Assembly: GCA_000004695.1 (NCBI GenBank) | Contig: CM000152.2 | Coordinates: forward strand, 1,952,001 to 2,016,000 | Direction of reading: 5' to 3' | DNA: 64,000 nucleotides | Source: Dictyostelium discoideum | Lineage: Eukaryota | Shown here: piece by piece, positions 23,813-53,991 of the stretch | How the letters are laid out: each line of letters begins with the position of its first letter | Numbering within the stretch: position 1 is the stretch's first letter | Notes under the pieces: generated by a model | Database searches by the model: none | Told to the model about the DNA's origin: nothing | What the model saw: the letters and a program-made list of their open reading frames with translations, nothing else | Made by a program: the position numbers and the translations under genes

Positions 23813-24493
23813 ATGGGTTGTATTTTCACCAAACCTTCTCCTGAACAACAGAAATTTGATGGAGAAGATTATGAATGTGAAAATAAAAAGAATTTAAATT
23901 TAATTAGTTATATTAGAAATTTATTATTTGGAAATAATAGTCATCAACAACTATACAATGAAATAATACCAACAACAACCTCAACAACCTCAACAACAAC
24001 AAATTCAGTGTACCAAAATATTGGTCTAGATGGATACAATAATAATAACAATAACAATAACAATAATAACAACAACAATAATATAATGAATAATTACGGC
24101 TATGACGATTATGGTTATAGCTATGAAGAAGATGAGGATTATTATGATGAAATGCCAATACCAACAATAGTGGCACAACCACAACCACAACCACAACCAC
24201 AACCACAACCACAACCACAACCACAACAACCAATAAGAATAGTATCACAAAATCAACAAATACCAACAACACCACCACAACAAATATCACAATTTAATAT
24301 TACTGGAAATAAATCACCATCTTCAATAGGAAGTAGACATAGAAGTAAACCCAAAGAAACTTTAAGAGCACATAAAAAGAGACATAAAGATGGACATAAA
24401 ATGGTTAATGAATATGTTTTCGTAAGAAAATTAGGTAAAGGTACTTTTGGAAAAGTAAAATTAGCCTATCATCATGATACACATCATTTATAT
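23813..24493 (+). CDS. Ser/Thr protein kinase (CAMKL group, LKB1/CaMKK-like) exon 1. N-terminal MGCIFTK myristoylation/palmitoylation signal, poly-N, (PQ)n, start of the kinase domain (LGKGTFGKVKLAYH)
   Basis: GxGxFGxV glycine loop. GTAAGT donor after HHLY. Confidence 0.8.
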
Positions 24494-24582
24494 GTAAGTT
24501 TAATTATTATTATTAATTATTATTATATTTTAATTATATATTAATTTAATTTTTTTTTAATTTTTATTTTAATTATAATTAG

Positions 24583-25989
24583 GCAATTAAAATTTTTAAT
24601 AAAATTAGATTAAAGAAACAAACAATGGGTATTGGTAGACCAAATGCATTTGATGATGTATTAAAAGAGATTGCAATTATGAAAAAGATGAATCATATAA
24701 ATGTTGTAAAACTTTATGAAGTTATCAATGATCCACAAGAAGAGTATATTTACATTGTGATGGAGTATATTGAAGGTGGTAGTATAATGTCTGCCAATGA
24801 GACATCTGAAGATTTAGCTAGAAAATACTTTAGAGATATTGTATTTGGTCTTGAATATCTTCATGAACAAAAAGTCATTCACAAAGATCTAAAGCCAGAG
24901 AATCTATTGGTCAATAGTGAAGGTGTTGTAAAGATCACTGATTTCGGTGTCTCACATATTTTCGATGACGATGACGTTGTAAGATGCTCAAGAGGAAGTC
25001 CAGCATTCTTGGCACCCGAATTATGTAGAAACGAATCTCAACCAATCTCTGGCAAAGGAGTGGATGTTTGGGCATTGGGTGTTAGTTTGTATTGTTTAAT
25101 CTTTGCAAGAACTCCATTCATCTCAAAAACAAACTCCCTATTGGATATCTATGATCAAATTGTTAATCATGAACCAACCTATCCAAGAGAGATCTCAAAT
25201 GATCTAATGGATCTATTCAAAAGATTATTGGATAAAAATCCATTGACCAGAATTCAAATAGCAGAGATTAAATCACACAAATGGACCACAATCTCTGGTA
25301 CATGGCCAATGAATGAGTTGGACCATTTGATCTTATCAGTAACTGATCAAGAAATGATCGATGCCATTAGTACCGATCATACAATTAAACCATCCGATAA
25401 TACTACAACTGATGAAGATGATTCAGATTTAAGTAGTAGTAGTGGTGGTGAAAGTAGTGGTATAATAGGTTCAAGTAATGAAAGTAAATCAATGTATAAT
25501 AATGTAAATAGTAAACAAAAAATTCAAAATCAAAATCAAAATCAAAATCAAAATCAAAATCAAAATCAAAATCAAAATCAAAATCAAAATCATAATCAAA
25601 ATCAAAATCAAAATCAAAATCAAAACAATAATAACAATTCATTAATTGAAAAATCAAATATCTCAATACCAGCATCATCATCATCGATTAGTAATAATGA
25701 TAGTTGCTATGAAAATAGAAATGTATATATAAAAGATGAAGAAATGAATATGATATGTAACGACAGTGTAATTATGGATCCAATTAAAGAATTAAACAAA
25801 ATTGATGGATTAAATTATGGTTGTGATTTCCAAATTGGAAAAGAATATTCAGATTTTCAATATAACAGTGGCCATTTTATTTATGATTTGGTCGATGAAA
25901 ATGAATCTCAAATATCAAGAGAATCTGCAAATGATTACTATTTACCTTTTAAAACAAATAAATATCTAAACAATAAATCAATTGTTTAA
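24583..25989 (+). CDS. Kinase exon 2: AIKIF (VAIK lysine), HKDLKPENLL, DFG, GSPAFLAPE, then a C-terminal tail with a (QN)17 repeat
   Basis: AATTAG acceptor. Motifs collinear with LKB1 (GSPAFQPPE) and CaMKK. Confidence 0.85.
   Translation, partial: AIKIFNKIRLKKQTMGIGRPNAFDDVLKEIAIMKKMNHINVVKLYEVINDPQEEYIYIVMEYIEGGSIMSANETSEDLARKYFRDIVFGLEYLHEQKVIHKDLKPENLLVNSEGVVKITDFGVSHIFDDDDVVRCSRGSPAFLAPELCRNESQPISGKGVDVWALGVSLYCLIFARTPFISKTNSLLDIYDQIVNHEPTYPREISNDLMDLFKRLLDKNPLTRIQIAEIKSHKWTTISGTWPMNELDHLILSVTDQEMIDAISTDHTIKPSDNTTTDEDDSDLSSSSGGESSGIIGSSNESKSMYNNVNSKQKIQNQNQNQNQNQNQNQNQNQNQNHNQNQNQNQNQNNNNNSLIEKSNISIPASSSSISNNDSCYENRNVYIKDEEMNMICNDSVIMDPIKELNKIDGLNYGCDFQIGKEYSDFQYNSGHFIYDLVDENESQISRESANDYYLPFKTNKYLNNKSIV
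25521..25622 (+). repeat. (CAAAAT)n hexanucleotide microsatellite, about 17 units, coding for (QN)n
   Basis: Seen in sequence. Confidence 0.9.
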
Positions 25990-26513: not shown

Positions 26514-26759
26514 CAATATTACTATTTTATTTTAGTTAATATTTCCTTATATGGTTGTTTTTTTTATTTTATATTTTATTTTTTATTTATTTTTTATTTT
26601 TTTTTCAAAAATTCGGGTTGTGCCACATTAATTGTTTAATTATTTAAATTATAATAAATAAAATTGTTTATGTGGCATTTTTTTTTTATTATTTTTATTA
26701 TTAGTATAAAAAGAAATGGAATATTGTGAATTAGTAATCAAAAATTTAGTAAAATAAAA

Positions 26760-26928
26760 ATGAAATTAAAAATAAAATTTTCCATTATTTCACTTTTTAT
26801 TTTAAAATTGGTAATTTCAAAACCAATTTTAAAATTTAATAATAATAATCAATTTAAAATTATTCAATTTACAGATTTACACTATGGAAGTGAACCAGTT
26901 GATGATATTGATACTATTTTCTCTCAAG
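26760..26928 (+). CDS. Metallophosphoesterase paralog 1, exon 1 (signal peptide + FKIIQFTDLHYG metal-binding motif I)
   Basis: ATG. GTGATT donor, phase 1. Confidence 0.7.
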
Positions 26929-26932
26929 GTGA

Positions 26933-26965
<33 letters not shown>

Positions 26966-27022
26966 ATTTTTATTTTTAAAATAATTATATAAAATATTTT
27001 GATTTATTAATTTATTTTAAAG

Positions 27023-27874
27023 TAAATATATTGGATTATGAGAAACCAGATTTAGTAATTTTAAGTGGTGATATGGTTACAGGATATGAAGAACAATTTG
27101 AAGATGATGATAGAAATTATTGGAAGTATTGGAATGTATTCACAAGGCCATTTGTAGAAAGAAATATTCCATGGGCAATTACATTTGGTAATCATGATGG
27201 TGAAGGTGCACTTAGTACAAATGAAATTTTGAAAATTGACCAAACTTTTAATTTAAGTCTTTCTCAATCAAATCCGGTGGAAATGCATGGGATTGCAAAT
27301 TATGTATTAAAAATTTCAAGTTCGAATAGTTTAAAAAGTGAACCGGCTTCATTGGTATACATTTTCGATAGTTCCACCAAAGGTTGCTCAAAATTAGATT
27401 GGGGTTGTGTTCATCAAGATCAAGTGGATTGGTTTAAAAATACTTCAAAAAGTTTTAACAAAACTGATTCAATAGCATTTGTTCATATTCCTCCAGTTGA
27501 GATTATTGACTTATGGAATAATTATCCAGTTTATGGAAATTATTCAGAAACTTCTTGTTGCTTTGATAATGATTATGGTGACTTTGTCTCGAGCCTTGTT
27601 GAATCAGGAGATGTTCACGGTTTATATTTTGGTCATGATCATGAAAATGATTTCCATGGAGATTATAAAGGTGTTGATTTAGGATATGGCAGAAAATCAG
27701 GTGCTGGTTCATATAGTTCTAAAAAGCCATTAGGTGCAAGAGTATTCCAATTAACCGAATCACCTTTTACTCTTTCAACATGGATAAGAGAAGAAGATGG
27801 TAATATTGTATCCCAAGTAATTCATCCACCATCAGAATTCGATCGAAAACCACTTCAATGTAAAATGAAAGATA
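27023..27874 (+). CDS. Metallophosphoesterase paralog 1, exon 2 (DLVILSGDM, GNHD, VHIPP, GHDH motifs of calcineurin-like / Dcr2-like phosphoesterases)
   Basis: TTTTAAAG acceptor. Conserved MPP motifs GDxxY...GNHD...GHxH. GTATGT donor, phase 1. Confidence 0.75.
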
Positions 27875-27966
27875 GTATGTATTAATTAATTAAAAAATCA
27901 TAATTATAAAAAATAAAAAAAATAAATTAACAATTGATTTTTCATTTATTTAAAATATTTAATTAG

Positions 27967-28136
27967 AGTATAGTAAAAAAGAATTAATAGCAATTAAAGT
28001 TATTGGAGGTTTTTTAATTTTCTTAGGAATAGTAGTTGTTGGTTTAATTGGATTTTTTGGGTTTAAACATTATAAAAAGTATGAATTTAAAAAACAATAC
28101 CAAGAATTTAAAAAATACTCAAATTGTATTTTATAA
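27967..28136 (+). CDS. Metallophosphoesterase paralog 1, exon 3: KYSKKELIAIKVIGGFLIFLGIVVVGLIGFFGFKHYKKYEFKKQYQEFKKYSNCIL* (single TM helix + basic tail)
   Basis: AATTAG acceptor. The exon is conserved in length and sequence with the paralog. Confidence 0.65.
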
Positions 28137-29122
28137 ATTCAATCATAAACACACCCTAATTAAACACACTTACATCACAACACACACACACACACATACA
28201 CATAACACACCCATTTATAATAACTGTAATATACAGAGAAATGAACGAATAATATAAATAAAAATGTATAATAAATTAAAATTGATTACATTTTATTTTT
28301 ATTATAATCCAATCTCGATATCTCTTTTTTTATAGATCACATCAAAAAATATTTAACTTCACCATTTTTAATTTATTTTGTTGTTTTGAATATCCCTTCT
28401 TTTTTTTATTTATTTATTTTTTTTGAAATTATGTCAAAGACTTTTCTTTTCAATCACTAACCTTTCAAATATTAATATTATTATTTAGATTCAAAAAGCA
28501 AACATTAGAAATGCAAAATCTTGTTTAATGAAAGTGAAGTTTATGGTTTTCCAAATTATATATAGATAATATCTAATCTTTTATATATATTTTTTATCTA
28601 AAATGCTAAATAAAATAGTGTGGTGCCATAGTTTGTTCTCAAAAAAAAATAAATAAAAAATAAACTTGATCAAGTTCTCTCAGAGATACTGGTTCTCATT
28701 GGTGGGTTATATTATCATTTTTTTTTATTTCTCAAATTTAATTGTTCAAATAATTTTATTTTATTTTTTTTTTTTTTTTTCATTTTAAAATAAATAAATA
28801 ATTAAAATAAATAATTAAATTATCTTTTTTATTTTTAAAAAATATTTTCAAAAAAAAAAAAAAAAAAAAGATTTATTTTTCAAAAACAATTTGGGAGGGA
28901 AAACAAAAAATAAAAGTCCCCAACAGAGCAAAAATAAAAAACCTATTTTTTTGAGTAAAAATTTGTCAAAAAATCCAATGCCAAAAAAAAAACATTGGAC
29001 CCATTTTTTCGAGTTCTCATTTTTCGATAACCTTTAGATTAATCCATCGCAACGTTGTAGTTTCAGAAAACATTTTAATATAAACCTTTCATAAATATAT
29101 TAAATGCACCTGTTTTGGAGAG

Positions 29123-29166
<44 letters not shown>

Positions 29167-29592
29167 AAACATTTTGCTACGTTTTATTTTATAATAATAT
29201 TTTCCGATTTGAATAGAAAAAAAAAAATTTAATGAAAAATTAAGTTTGAGTCTTTAACAAAAAATTTTAATGTTTTTCCTTTGAAAATTATATTAAATAA
29301 TATACAATTTTTTTTTTTTTTTTTAATGATTCGTGTCAAGTGCTACCTATGTTTTCTGTTTTTTTTTTTTTTTTTTTTAAATCCAAATATTTCCAAATTT
29401 GGAATTTAAATCAAAATTATTTCGTGTAGCATTATACAAAAAAAAAAAGGTTATAAATTATTATTTTTTTTTATAATTTATATATGTGGCTTTTTTTTAT
29501 TATTTTAAAAAAAAAATACTATAAAAAGGAAATGAAAAAAAAAAAATAATTCATTCAAACAATAAAAGAAACAATTTCGGAAAAAAAAAAAA

Positions 29593-29758
29593 ATGAAAGT
29601 AATAAATAAATTCATTATTATTTCAATATTATTAAAAATGGTAAACTCTAAACCAATTTTAAAATTTAATAATAATAATCAATTTAAAATTGTTCAATTT
29701 ACTGATTTACATTATGGTAGTGATCCAGAGTCAGATGTAGATTCAGTTTATTCTCAAA
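29593..29758 (+). CDS. Metallophosphoesterase paralog 2, exon 1
   Basis: ATG. GTAATT donor, phase 1. Paralogous to 26760..26928. Confidence 0.7.
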
Positions 29759-29857
29759 GTAATTATTAATAATTTAAAATAAATAAAACCAAAAAATAAA
29801 AATAAAAATAAAAATAAAAAATAAAGAGATTACTAATTTAATAAAAATTTAAAAAAG

Positions 29858-30712
29858 TTACAATCTTAGATTATGAGAAACCAGATTTAGTAGTTTTTAG
29901 TGGTGATATGATTTCAGGTTACCTTGATCCATTTGAAGATAATGATAAAAATTATTGGAAGTATTGGAATTTATTCACTGAACCTTTAATTGAAAGAAAT
30001 ATTCCATGGGCTATTACATTTGGTAATCATGATGGTGAAGGTGCACTCAGTACAAATGAAATTTTGAAACTTGACCAAACTTTTAATTTAAGTCTTTCCC
30101 AATCAAATTCAGTGGAAATGCATGGGATTGCAAATTATGTATTAAAAATTTCAAGTTCAAATAGTTCAAAAGAGGAACCTGCATCTTTAATTTATATTTT
30201 TGACAGTTCCACCAAAGGTTGTTCAAAATTAGATTGGGGTTGTGTTCATCAAGATCAAGTGGATTGGTTTAAAAATACTTCAAAAAGTTTTAACAAAACT
30301 AATTCAATTGCATTTGTTCATATTCCTCCAATTGAAGTTATTGACTTATGGAACAAATATCCAGTTCATGGTAATTTTTCAGAAACTCCATGTTGTTTTG
30401 ATAATGAATTTGGTAACTTTGTCCCAAGCCTTGTTGAATCAGGAGATGTTCACGGTTTATATTTTGGTCATGATCATGAAAATGATTTCCATGGAGATTA
30501 TAAAGGTGTTGATTTAGGATATGGCAGAAAATCAGGTGAAGGTTCATATAGTTCCAAAAAGCCATTAGGTGCAAGAGTATTCCAATTAACCGAATCACCT
30601 TTTACTCTTTCAACATGGATAAGAGAAGTAAATGGTAATATTGTATCTCAAGATGTTCATGTACAATCTGAAATAGATCAAAAACCACTTCAATGTAAAA
30701 GAAAGATAGTAA
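29858..30712 (+). CDS. Metallophosphoesterase paralog 2, exon 2
   Basis: AAAAAAG acceptor. About 85% aa identity to paralog 1. The 3' end is set at a GTATTT donor (30713) to keep the downstream TM exon in frame. The alternative GTAAGT at 30709 gives a stop. Confidence 0.6.
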
Positions 30713-30713
30713 G

Positions 30714-30771
<58 letters not shown>

Positions 30772-30810
30772 AATTAATATTTATTAATTTTTATTTTTTT
30801 ATAAAATTAG

Positions 30811-30980
30811 AATATAGTAAAAGACAATTGTTAATTTATAAAATTGTTGGAAGTTTTTCAATTTTTTTGGCAGTAGTACTCGTTGGTTTGGCTGGATTTT
30901 TTGGATATAAATTTTATAAAAAGTATGAATTTAAAAAACATTACCAAGAATTAAAAAAATTCTCAAATTGTATTTTATAA
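30811..30980 (+). CDS. Metallophosphoesterase paralog 2, exon 3: KYSKRQLLIYKIVGSFSIFLAVVLVGLAGFFGYKFYKKYEFKKHYQELKKFSNCIL*
   Basis: Conserved with 27967..28136. Confidence 0.6.
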
Positions 30981-31259
30981 AATACAACCATAAACATACC
31001 CTAAACACTCACATCACACAAACAAACACAAACACTCACACAAACACAACATACACGATAATAACACACCCATTTATAATAACTGTAATATAGAGATGAA
31101 TGCTTGATATTTAATAATAAAATGTATAATATAAATTAAAATTTAATACATTTTATTTTATTATCATCCTATTTCTATATTTCTATTTTATAGATCACTT
31201 TCAACAAAAATCACATTTTACCAACATTCAAAAAGATGATGGTATTTTAAATTATTTTC

Positions 31260-31572: not shown

Positions 31573-32613
31573 TTATTTATAAATTGAAACATTGATAATA
31601 TCATTTTGATCATTTTCACAATTATTATCAATTATTACATAACCACGATACATACCTTCAGTGTTGAAAGGCATTTCAACATTTCCATATTTATCAACAC
31701 AAATTACACCACCATCACCAACTGTTATTAATTTTTCCATTACAACTTTATTGGATGCATCTTTTAAAGATAAAGAACCATATTCCATCATTGCAGCAAT
31801 ATCAAAAGCGGCCACTGTTCTCATAAATGCTTCACCAGTTCCAGTTGAACTAACAGCAACATTTTTATTTGCATAAACACCAGCACCAATAATTGGAGTA
31901 TCACCAACTCTACCATGCATTTTATTTGTCATACCACCAGTTGAAGTTGCAGCGGCTAAATTACCAAAGGAATCTAAACAAACAGCACCAACAGTTCCCA
32001 TTTTATACTTTGGATCAATTGGATCAACTCCAACTGAAATAGTTGTCGTTGTTGTTGATGTTTCATTATTCTTTTCTTTTTCTTTTTCTTTTTCTAATAA
32101 ATTTTCACCATCATGATCTAAAATTAATTTCTTTTCATCTTTTGCTCTTAATAATTGATCATATCTATTTTGAGTAAAAAAGAAAGAAGGTTCAACGATT
32201 TCTAAATTCTTTGATTTTGCAAATTCTTCAGCACCTTTTCCAACTAATAAACAATGGTTTGTATGTTCCATAACAGCTCTAGCGGCAATAATAGGATTTC
32301 TAATGATTGAAACGCCACCAACTGCTCCTGCTTTTAAATTTGTACCATCCATAATGGCTGCATCCATTTCATTTGTACCAAGTTCAGTGAATACAGAACC
32401 TTTACCTGCATTATAAATTGGATCTTCTTCTAAAAGTCTAACTGCTTCTTGAACAACATCCAATGATGTACCACCTTGTTTCAATATAATTTTACCTGCT
32501 AATAATATATTCTTTAATGAATTTAAAAATATTTCTTCTCTCTCTTTTGATATTGTTGATTTTGAAATAACTCCTGCACCACCATGAATTACTAAAACTG
32601 ATTTCTTATTCAT
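31573..32613 (-). CDS. Plant-type L-asparaginase / isoaspartyl peptidase (Ntn hydrolase), single exon. GGAG...autoproteolytic G|TVGAV threonine
   Basis: VLVIHGGAG, MGTVGAVCLD, STGTGE motifs. Confidence 0.85.
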   Translation of the reverse strand: MNKKSVLVIHGGAGVISKSTISKEREEIFLNSLKNILLAGKIILKQGGTSLDVVQEAVRLLEEDPIYNAGKGSVFTELGTNEMDAAIMDGTNLKAGAVGGVSIIRNPIIAARAVMEHTNHCLLVGKGAEEFAKSKNLEIVEPSFFFTQNRYDQLLRAKDEKKLILDHDGENLLEKEKEKEKNNETSTTTTTISVGVDPIDPKYKMGTVGAVCLDSFGNLAAATSTGGMTNKMHGRVGDTPIIGAGVYANKNVAVSSTGTGEAFMRTVAAFDIAAMMEYGSLSLKDASNKVVMEKLITVGDGGVICVDKYGNVEMPFNTEGMYRGYVIIDNNCENDQNDIINVSIYK

Positions 32614-52875: not shown

Positions 52876-53991
52876 ATGCAAGATATAAGTGATAGTAATG
52901 ATGAAGATATAAATAAAAATAATACCACAACAACCACTACTACCTCTTCAACTAATATACAATCAAATTTAACACCATTATCAAGTAGAAGGAGAAGAAC
53001 TCCAACAGTAACAACACCACCCACCAAACAAAAAGGTGGATATCCTAAAGAAGAGCAAGATGAAGAATTTGATGAAGATGTAGATATTGAAGAGGAAGAA
53101 GAGGAGGAAGATATATCATCAGAACCATCCGAGGACGATGACGATGATGAAGATTATGACGATGGTGGTAGTAAAAGGAAGAGAAAATCAAAGAAACAAA
53201 AACAACAAGAGGAAGAAGAAGAAGCAGCAGTAGCAGCAGCATCAGCAGCAACGTCTAATCGAAATATCATATTTGATGAAAACGGTAACGAGATATACGA
53301 AGACGAGGGTGACGACGAGGGCGACGAAGAGGAGGACGAGGAGGAGGACGAAGAAATGGACGAGGAGGGCGACGAAGAGGAGGATGAGGAGGATGATGAA
53401 GACGAGGGGGAAGAGAGGTTGGAGGATTTAGACAGCAGCGACAGCAGCGACGTCGAGGACACCACACTATTAGACCAATCTCAACAAACTCAGCAAACTC
53501 AACACCAGCAATTACAGCAACAATTATTATTACAACAAACTCAACAACAATTACAACAGCACCATCACCAAATACAAGATGGTGATAAACTATTCCAAAG
53601 TGGGGACCCAGGTGACGACTTTTTAATTCCAATCAGATTAGATATTCAAAGTAGTGTTTACAAAATCGGTGATTACCTATTATGGAATTTAAACGAACGT
53701 GACATCTCACCAGAATACTATTCAAAACGTTTATGCATCGAATTGGATTACCCTGAATGGTTTGAATTTATGATCACCAATTCAATAGCAAATCAAATCA
53801 TCTATGGTAAAAGCATCATTAAAGAATTTCGTAAAATCTTACCAAAATTAAAACAAATATTTAAAGAATGTATAGTAACAATTAGTTTAGATTTAAATGT
53901 AAATGGTCTTTACTTAAAAGATAGATTCGAATGGGATATCATTGGTCCAAATTTACCTGAATCATTTGCAAAATCAATTTCAATGGATTTA
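52876..53991 (+). CDS. snf5: SNF5/INI1 (SWI/SNF core subunit) exon 1: acidic/poly-Q N-terminus, SNF5 repeat 1 and start of repeat 2 (LIPIRLDIQ..., DRFEWDI...)
   Basis: ATG at 52876. The raw ORF start at 52834 is TTG/poly-A. GTAAGT donor. Confidence 0.8.

Follow-up and report, generated by a model that had tools for sequence, protein, structure and literature searches.

A tandem pair of putative Dcr2-like metallophosphoesterase genes in Dictyostelium discoideum that probably owes its young appearance to gene conversion

Yeast Dcr2 is a membrane-anchored metallophosphoesterase (MPP) with a lumen-facing catalytic domain and the motif series DxH, GD, GNHD, H and GHDH. In the Golgi it remodels glycosylphosphatidylinositol (GPI) anchors by stripping ethanolamine-phosphate (EtNP) from the second mannose, Man2 (PMC11584325, PMC12478125; the literature on this activity also includes PMC7530903). 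Dcr2 is redundant with Ted1 of the endoplasmic reticulum (PMC11584325) and is retained in the Golgi as a client of Vps74 (PMC12478125), which, according to the same paper, binds the short cytoplasmic N-termini of its clients. Yeast Ted1 and human PGAP5 (MPPE1) are also luminal, membrane-bound MPPs that act on the EtNP of GPI anchors, and we liken them to the proteins studied here by description only. The tea proteins PAP29a-c have the motifs ADMH, GDNIF, GNHD, VYFH and GHDH and are classed as MPP_Dcr2 in CDD (PMC6515233). We analysed two adjacent MPP genes of Dictyostelium discoideum, g1 (DDB_G0279353, 'type 1') and g2 (DDB_G0279355, 'type 2'). They lie in a stretch of 64,000 nucleotides of contig CM000152.2 (assembly GCA_000004695.1, positions 1,952,001 to 2,016,000, forward strand), which is called the window below. 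An annotation made from the letters alone, here termed the sequence-only reading, had taken the pair for a recent tandem duplication of a membrane-anchored, Dcr2-like gene. The public databases dictyBase and NCBI list both already, as hypothetical or uncharacterised proteins on a 6.36-Mb contig.

Classic cases of concerted evolution include globin or opsin gene pairs. The Dictyostelium locus resembles concerted tandem duplicates in its adjacent, equally oriented paralogues, its mosaic tree, a tract in which the synonymous divergence (dS) is lower between paralogues than between orthologues, and flanks that keep their age. Set against the classic cases it has no unusual trait, with a tract of about 640 bp that is patchy and recurs in three sister species. 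We give a probability of about 0.8 to the interpretation that this is an old tandem duplication whose exon-2 core has been homogenised by interlocus gene conversion in each species, and that the genes encode luminal enzymes of the Dcr2/PAP28-29 type. The pair is real but ordinary, and gene-converted tandem duplicates are commonplace. What is new is the evolutionary detail of its concerted evolution and two conserved non-coding elements. The importance beyond annotation is small; the locus serves as a worked example that the similarity of paralogues cannot be read as their age in the D. discoideum genome.

The locus was taken from Dictyostelium citrinum (L001), Dictyostelium dimigraforme (L002) and Dictyostelium firmibasis (L003). 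Together with D. discoideum this gave eight genes, labelled dis1 (g1), dis2 (g2), cit1, cit2, dim1, dim2, dim3 and fir. In all four species the copies are flanked by a protein-kinase gene on one side and an asparaginase-like gene in convergent orientation on the other, and all eight genes have the same three-exon structure and the canonical tail. Bootstrapped neighbour-joining trees were computed for separate segments of the codon alignment. In codons 1-105, dis2, cit2 and dim3 grouped together with 91% bootstrap support and dis1 and cit1 with 97%; in codons 311-398 the group of dis2, cit2 and dim3 was recovered at 98%. In codons 106-310 the genes grouped by species as (dis1, dis2), (cit1, cit2) and (dim1, dim2, dim3), each with 100% support. 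The mosaic is visible by eye in the protein alignment of the eight copies. Between alignment columns 300 and 943 we counted 50 informative sites with a species pattern and 8 with an orthology pattern, against 4 and 38 outside these columns (Fisher p = 4.8e-15). Since D. citrinum and D. dimigraforme have type-1 and type-2 orthologues arranged in the same order, and since the ends of the genes group by orthology in the segment trees, the duplication predates the split of these species and the dating as 'recent' in the sequence-only reading had to be given up.

The substitution rates, calculated by the Nei-Gojobori method, differ between the parts of the gene. In the central tract, dS was 0.08-0.27 for paralogues versus 0.54-0.77 for orthologues. 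Over the whole coding sequence (CDS) the orthologues had a dS of 0.50-0.67 and a ratio of nonsynonymous to synonymous divergence (dN/dS, omega) of 0.12-0.15. In the N-terminal part, dN was higher between paralogues (0.16-0.18) than between orthologues (0.04-0.11). The nucleotide identities of the N-terminal, central and C-terminal parts were 80, 93 and 79% for the D. discoideum paralogues and 88-91, 85-88 and 85-88% for the orthologues of D. discoideum and D. citrinum. The extreme is reached at 27592-27793, where 202 nt contain just three differences between g1 and g2. The pair would thus look young because its central ~640 bp have been overwritten repeatedly between the copies.

In the history that we propose, a single tandem duplication comes first. 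The duplicated unit measures about 1.9 kb and starts roughly 260 bp upstream of the ATG, ending some 230 bp beyond the stop codon. The duplication would be younger than the split of the D. firmibasis lineage and older than the divergence among D. discoideum, D. citrinum and D. dimigraforme. Both coding ends would then have diverged and been kept distinct, namely amino acids 1-100 with the loops after the metal-binding motifs I and II, and amino acids 311-396 with the stalk, the transmembrane helix and the tail. The exon-2 core of about 640 bp was probably overwritten recurrently by interlocus gene conversion that took place separately in every species, and a later extra duplication of the type-1 copy would account for the third gene in D. 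dimigraforme, where dim1 and dim2 form the younger pair (dS 0.13). In dim1, codons 58-105 resemble type 2 or the ancestral state, a hint of one more exchange.

Sixteen amino-acid differences between type 1 and type 2 are fixed in common to the three species with both types. They cluster at residues 47-54, after motif I, and at 76-81 and 95, after motif II; the others are scattered at 19, 69, 227, 284, 315, 348 and 373, of which 348 and 373 are in the transmembrane and tail region. Residues adjoining motifs I and II line the rim of the active site in MPPs. We infer that specificity for substrates or partners, together with sorting, is what keeps the copies distinct. The gene of D. firmibasis, the most distant species by dS (0.86-0.99), has the type-1 residue at 9 of the 16 sites and the type-2 residue at 7. 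Where outgroups resolve the state, which is the case at few sites, the D. firmibasis residues appear to be the ancestral ones.

Both products match the Pfam family Metallophos (PF00149) above its cutoff of 21.5 bits, g1 with 47.8 and g2 with 46.2 bits. The full set of MPP motifs had been read from the letters and is present in both copies. In g1 it consists of D39-x-H41, G72-D73, G112-N-H-D115, H211 and G260-H-D-H263, and in g2 of the same residues shifted by one; the motif strings are TDLH, GDMVT (GDMIS in g2), GNHD, FVHI and GHDH. Across 70 homologues each of these residues is either invariant or conserved to at least 90%. The AlphaFold2 (AF2) model, built with the alignment of these homologues, has a predicted local distance difference test (pLDDT) score of 93 and shows a hydrophobic helix at the N-terminus (2-16), then the MPP sandwich and, at 344-395, a long helix at the C-terminus, into which the hydrophobic stretch of the hydropathy plot falls. 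The proposed membrane anchoring is thus supported by a hydrophobic N-terminus and a single C-terminal hydrophobic helix in both copies. The tail that follows, K(H/F)YKKYEFKK(Q/H)YQE(F/L)KK(Y/F)SNCIL, is predicted to place 22 residues in the cytosol, and its KKYEFKK...SNCIL pattern is found in both proteins as claimed. Each protein has four or five N-x-S/T sequons, and there are conserved cysteines in the domain. The proteins would accordingly read as type I membrane proteins with a luminal or extracellular catalytic domain. A CaaX motif was ruled out for the tail because its cysteine is third from the end, and a di-lysine motif because KK is not at -3/-4. The tail contains YQEF in g1 and YQEL in g2, which we take to be of the YxxPhi type that is typical of endolysosomal sorting.

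Structure searches placed the fold among the MPPs. With Foldseek all 50 PDB matches listed were MPPs (purple acid phosphatases (PAPs), Rv0805, GpdQ, Mre11 and SMPDL3) with a best expectation value (E) of 1.3e-10, and the best folds were mammalian PAPs, Rv0805, Lmo2642 and GpdQ at 13-18% identity. The sequence search of PDB found no close relative (best E 0.016), and NCBIfam returned generic MPP matches only, all below threshold. The pair shares the dinuclear MPP fold with true PAPs such as mammalian ACP5 and the plant enzymes (5uq6, 1war and 1ute; E ~1e-10, template modelling score 0.5-0.65). Membership of the true PAPs was rejected, with an identity of 13-18%, DLH as motif I and GDMVT or GDMIS, without the tyrosine, as motif II. 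The series DxH, GD (no Tyr), GNHD, H and GHDH in g1 is the subfamily pattern of the MPP_Dcr2 (cd07383) type, and the same motif set is found in the plant PAP28/29 group of 'probable inactive purple acid phosphatases'. An algal 'putative inactive purple acid phosphatase 28' (P0308) matched g1 with 31% identity over 370 amino acids (E 3e-51), and it aligns across the catalytic domain only. From the motif pattern and this match the label 'Dcr2-like' is plausible. Protein database searches leading from g1 to its paralogue P0025 and on to a chytrid protein listed dictyostelid, other protist, algal and chytrid matches and many Firmicute MPPs. The family has grown in dictyostelids, where D. discoideum has at least five paralogue groups, and a different D. 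discoideum paralogue, that of the P0025 group, seems to be the one conserved broadly across eukaryotes.

As a working model, each gene would encode a type I membrane glycoprotein with a cleavable signal peptide, a luminal or extracellular dinuclear MPP domain of the Dcr2/PAP28-29 type, one transmembrane helix and a short cytosolic tail with a sorting motif of the YxxPhi type. The predicted metal ligands are D39, H41, D73, N113, H211, H261 and H263, and H114 would be the catalytic histidine. The enzymes probably hydrolyse phosphoester or phosphodiester bonds of luminal substrates in the Golgi-endolysosomal system, possibly in analogy to yeast Dcr2 when it removes EtNP from mannose 2 of GPI anchors. 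Our best guess by this analogy is that they work like a luminal phosphoesterase of the Dcr2/PAP28 type.

Other explanations of the pair were weighed against these data. The 93% identity of the central 644 nt, its 202-nt stretch with three differences and a whole-CDS dS that is lower between the paralogues (0.31) than between the orthologues (0.50-0.58) are what a recent tandem duplication specific to D. discoideum would leave behind, if the N-terminus and first exon simply evolved faster. We regard this as very unlikely, because D. citrinum and D. dimigraforme show the same succession of types 1 and 2, the gene ends cluster by type across species at 91-98%, there are 38 sites with an orthology pattern outside the tract and the intron sequences are randomised. 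Independent, parallel duplications in each species without any conversion would make every pair young and would explain why the centre groups by species at 100% bootstrap; the additional younger copy in D. dimigraforme fits as well. The N- and C-terminal segments of the same genes, however, cluster by type, the 16 type differences are fixed in three species, and gene order and neighbours are identical. Two histories in one gene need recombination or conversion, and this makes parallel duplication most improbable. It is equally hard to credit that purifying selection on the catalytic core is the sole cause of the central similarity. It is true that the catalytic motifs are in the core and that dN is lowest there (0.03-0.05), yet the dS of the core between paralogues is 2- to 8-fold lower than between orthologues, and such selection cannot produce 50 sites at which both paralogues have species-specific states. 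A decaying pseudogene among the two copies might be suspected from the hairpin 3' of g1, the most degraded of its kind (z-score -1.73), and from aberrant-looking g1 isoforms in strain AX4. Both open reading frames (ORFs) are intact with all catalytic residues, and each type is under purifying selection between species (omega 0.12-0.15), so that decay of either copy is hardly credible. An old duplication with a converted core is therefore the explanation that we retain for the history of the pair.

For the function, an endolysosomal or cell-surface acid phosphatase or phosphodiesterase that scavenges phosphate from phagocytosed prey is a serious candidate, which we nevertheless consider somewhat unlikely. 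It would suit the best structural matches (PAPs, Rv0805 and GpdQ), the dictyostelid expansion of the family, the close relatives in soil bacteria, and the finding that the widely conserved eukaryotic orthologue appears to be another paralogue, P0025. The YxxPhi motif of the tail, as assigned from general knowledge, would also agree with it. The PAP-defining GDxG and GDxxY, the latter with the tyrosine ligand, are absent, and the motif pattern agrees with the MPP_Dcr2 type. Our preferred interpretation, a converted old pair encoding luminal enzymes of the Dcr2/PAP28-29 type, has several observations weighing against it. No Dcr2-named protein was among the matches listed in the chain of searches from g1, bacterial MPPs score as well as the algal 'PAP28' against g1, and with 34-37% identity those of Paenibacillus and Clostridium are no more distant than the named eukaryotic relatives. 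The pair would have the luminal orientation in common with yeast Dcr2. Unlike yeast Dcr2, which is anchored at its N-terminus and bound there by Vps74, the Dictyostelium pair has a signal-peptide-like N-terminus and the opposite arrangement of a C-terminal transmembrane helix with a cytosolic tail; the signal peptide and this helix are read from hydropathy and the AF2 model only. No paper that mentions the gene or UniProt identifiers of the pair was found in literature searches, and these yielded no expression, localisation or enzymatic data. The segment trees were built from short segments of four species only, and the single copy in D. firmibasis could reflect a loss. Finally, islands with the orthology pattern are found within the tract at columns 487-507, 682 and 854-855. 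They indicate that conversion is patchy or is locally selected against, and small islands of this kind, SLKSEP/SSKEEP and a GAG/GEG residue, fit local selection against homogenisation.

Most of what had been read from the letters about the two copies was borne out. They are two three-exon genes on the same strand with their ATGs 2833 bp apart. A relaxed blastn dot-plot was flooded by low-complexity A/T matches, so segment-wise alignments were compared with shuffled sequences instead. A similarity limited to exon 2 would have refuted the sequence-only reading, but it extends well beyond, with 81% nucleotide identity in exon 1 (z 20), 91% in exon 2 (z 101) and 83% in exon 3 (z 24). The proteins are 80% identical (319/397) and not about 85% as estimated. 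The dN/dS comparison that had been proposed for the paralogues gave a dN of 0.105, a dS of 0.311 and an omega of 0.34 over the whole CDS of dis1 and dis2, compared with orthologue values of omega of 0.12-0.13. A stronger divergence of the first exons and N-termini had been noted; the N-terminus has diverged, and the C-terminal end has done so too (both ~80% at the nucleotide level), and the central 644 nt stand out alone. The introns are at homologous positions and both in phase 1, whereas their sequences, which had also been called conserved, are at chance level (z -0.2 for intron 1 and 0.2 for intron 2).

Outside the coding regions, the 400 nt upstream of g1 and g2 are weakly similar (z 4.5) and the 400 nt downstream strongly (z 18), in the latter case over about 230 bp from the stop codon. 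Past about -260 upstream and +230 downstream, matches between the two are homopolymers alone. The 5' string TGTGGCATTTTTTTT that had been named as conserved is exact in g1 only and reads TGTGGCTTTTTTTT in g2, with short motif islands (z 3-4.5) as the part that is kept. Similarly, the C/A-rich 3' string ACACACACACACAT is exact in g1 only, and g2 has a C/A-rich stretch that differs from it. The 24-mer CCCATTTATAATAACTGTAATATA stands as described, occurring exactly twice in the window, once on the downstream side of each gene, at 28210 and 31069. The spacer between the copies contains no real ORF, only low-complexity artefacts, and is not conserved in the other species. The homopolymers A47 (29123-29169, in the spacer) and A49 (in intron 2 of g2) dominate naive dot-plots.

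The gene models were obtained by enumerating the GT..AG combinations that keep an open frame, which left one sensible model per gene (Table 1). The G+C content of the window is 20-25%, and the introns are short and AT-rich. Exons 1 to 3 measure 169, 852 and 170 nt in g1 and 166, 855 and 170 nt in g2. The 396-aa product of g1 is identical to KAM9949284.1, which is in the same cluster as DDB_G0279353. The AX4 model of DDB_G0279355 (Q54WW5, 381 aa) is an exact suffix of our g2 product and starts at an internal methionine at 29638, 15 codons downstream of the in-frame ATG at 29593. The region 29593-29637 adds the signal-peptide-like MKVINKFIIISILLK to g2, and the longer N-terminus is kept in all orthologues. 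Because MKVINKFIIISILLK is conserved upstream of the AX4 start, the public model of DDB_G0279355 looks N-terminally truncated, and our comparison lends support to the longer, signal-peptide-bearing start.

Two AX4 isoforms of g1 differ from our model. One uses an alternative acceptor at 27049/27050 and drops VNILDYEKP (27023-27049). The other (XP_002649163) has a donor after 28078, an alternative intron at 28079-28488 and a last exon at 28489-28528 on the plus strand; its tail becomes FKKQTLEMQNLV, and the canonical tail is spliced out together with the 3' block and its hairpin. The alternative last exon is not conserved in D. citrinum.

Table 1. Features of the tandem pair in the window, and of the corresponding loci in other species (positions preceded by L001 to L004 refer to those loci).
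Feature	Position	Strand	Remarks
g1, DDB_G0279353, type 1	26760-28136	+	3 exons, 396 aa
g1 exon 1	26760-26928	+	signal-peptide-like N-terminus, motif I (DLH)
g1 intron 1	26929-27022	+	phase 1
g1 exon 2	27023-27874	+	catalytic MPP core (GD, GNHD, H211, GHDH), 4 N-glycosylation sequons, conserved Cys
g1 intron 2	27875-27966	+	phase 1
g1 exon 3	27967-28136	+	predicted transmembrane helix (~aa 346-374), predicted cytosolic tail KHYKKYEFKKQYQEFKKYSNCIL, stop codon
g2, DDB_G0279355, type 2	29593-30980	+	3 exons, 396 aa
g2 exon 1	29593-29758	+	
g2 intron 1	29759-29857	+	phase 1
g2 exon 2	29858-30712	+	catalytic MPP core
g2 intron 2	30713-30810	+	phase 1, includes A49 run (30720-30768)
g2 exon 3	30811-30980	+	predicted transmembrane helix, tail KFYKKYEFKKHYQELKKFSNCIL, stop codon
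g1 putative conversion tract	27150-27793	+	columns 300-943, 93% identical to g2
g2 putative conversion tract	29985-30628	+	columns 300-943
Inter-copy spacer	28366-29330	.	~1 kb, related to neither flank
g1 CArG box CCTTATATGG	26545-26554	+	-215 from ATG
g2 CArG box CCAAATTTGG	29393-29402	+	-200 from ATG
Third CArG box of the window	53676-53685		
CArG boxes elsewhere	L001 6817, 9518; L002 6717, 6867, 10249, 12961; L003 6822; L004 3629		
g1 inverted repeat	TGCCACAT 26621-26628; ATGTGGCA 26670-26677	+	ATGTGGCA followed by T-run
g2 ATGTGGC and T-run	29484-29490 onward	+	
g1 TATA-like TATAAAAAG	26705-26713	+	-55 from ATG
g2 TATAAAAAG	29520-29528	+	aligns with g1 26705-26713 and other species
g1 C/A-rich stretch	28137-28210	+	directly after stop codon
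g2 C/A-rich stretch	30981-31069	+	directly after stop codon
g1 3' block and hairpin	28205-28350 (core 28211-28339)	+	contains AATAAA; covariance model 110 bits
g2 3' block and hairpin	31064-31208 (core 31070-31197)	+	covariance model 113.6 bits
D. citrinum 3' blocks	L001 8370-8510, 11091-11233		
D. dimigraforme 3' blocks	L002 8346-8486, 11721-11863, 14587-14727		
D. firmibasis 3' block	L003 8431-8569		
D. discoideum gene copies			2 copies, confirmed by tblastn
D. citrinum gene copies			2 copies
D. dimigraforme gene copies	L002 7001-8330, 10376-11707, 13135-14520		3 copies
D. firmibasis gene copies			1 copy
Upstream neighbour, protein-kinase gene	23813-25989	+	two exons
Downstream neighbour, asparaginase-2-like gene	31573-32613	-	single exon, 346 aa, convergent

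The first of the two conserved non-coding elements is a CArG box. The pattern CC(A/T)6GG occurs three times in the 64 kb of the window. The consensus ATTTCC(A/T)6GG is found at -127 to -215 of all eight ATGs in the four species. Across 142 kb there are 13 CArG boxes, and 10 of them precede MPP genes, among these a distant paralogue in L004 (-372). In the promoters that depend on SrfA or SrfB no consensus CArG was found (Galardi-Castilla et al. 2008, PMC3819988), and the CArG box of the MPP genes is therefore a candidate direct MADS-box site. If true, this would be the first consensus site of the serum response factor type to be tied to a specific Dictyostelium gene family.

Closer to the start codons, the window has just two instances of TGTGGC, one per gene, at -89 and -108 from the ATGs, and the element is conserved in dis1, dis2, cit1, cit2, dim3 and fir. 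Its inverted partner TGCCACAT is located about 45 bp upstream of it in the type-1 copies and in D. firmibasis. The string ACCCATTTATAA was also considered as a Dictyostelium upstream sequence element (DUSE) or class-I-RNA promoter. We rejected this, since its CCCA is not invariant (CCTA in cit1 and TCCA in dim2) and the string differs from the DUSE consensus, which is [AT]CCCA[CT]AA.

The second element is a block of about 130 nt that is located 3' of all eight genes in the four species. Its pairwise identity is 77-90%. For comparison, intron identity is 49-74% both across species and between the two D. discoideum genes, and reaches 0.82 in the young pair dim1-dim2; the proportion of synonymous differences (pS) between species is 0.4-0.55, with synonymous sites near saturation. 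On the sense strand all eight copies of the block fold into the same end-to-end hairpin of four helices. The z-scores were -1.7 to -5.0 on the sense strand (mean ~-3.3) and 0.0 to -2.5 on the antisense strand (mean ~-1.0), with -4.97 versus -0.90 for the hairpin of g2. The hairpin positions are paired to 93.5%, versus 35-58% in slid controls. The covariation is not significant, as the one compensatory pair was equalled in 163 of 500 shuffles. Since the block holds AATAAA, UGUA and a U-rich tract, it may be the polyadenylation and termination region. A functional sense-strand RNA hairpin, acting in 3'-end formation, termination or mRNA fate and forming a regulatory module with the upstream CArG box, is a tentative and rather doubtful proposal. 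Nevertheless, the hairpin and the CArG box could offer a handle on the regulation of this putative secretory-pathway phosphoesterase family.

Searches for relatives of the block ended at the known copies. Rfam gave no match, neither for the window at the gathering threshold nor for the block at E <= 10; the covariance model found the 8 known copies only in 142 kb, with none near the distant paralogues, and a search of metagenome contigs with the exact pattern of the block core gave 0 matches. A selenocysteine insertion sequence (SECIS) was rejected as a reading of the block: it has no Rfam match, AUGA is not conserved and TAA is the stop codon of the CDS. A transfer RNA scan of the 64-kb window found none. 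Between the stop codon and the block, the C/A-rich stretch is kept in dis1, dis2, fir, cit2 and dim3 and deleted in cit1, dim1 and dim2. The stretches of dis1 and dis2 have CATAAACAYACCCTAA in common, which may be the mark of a second conversion tract.

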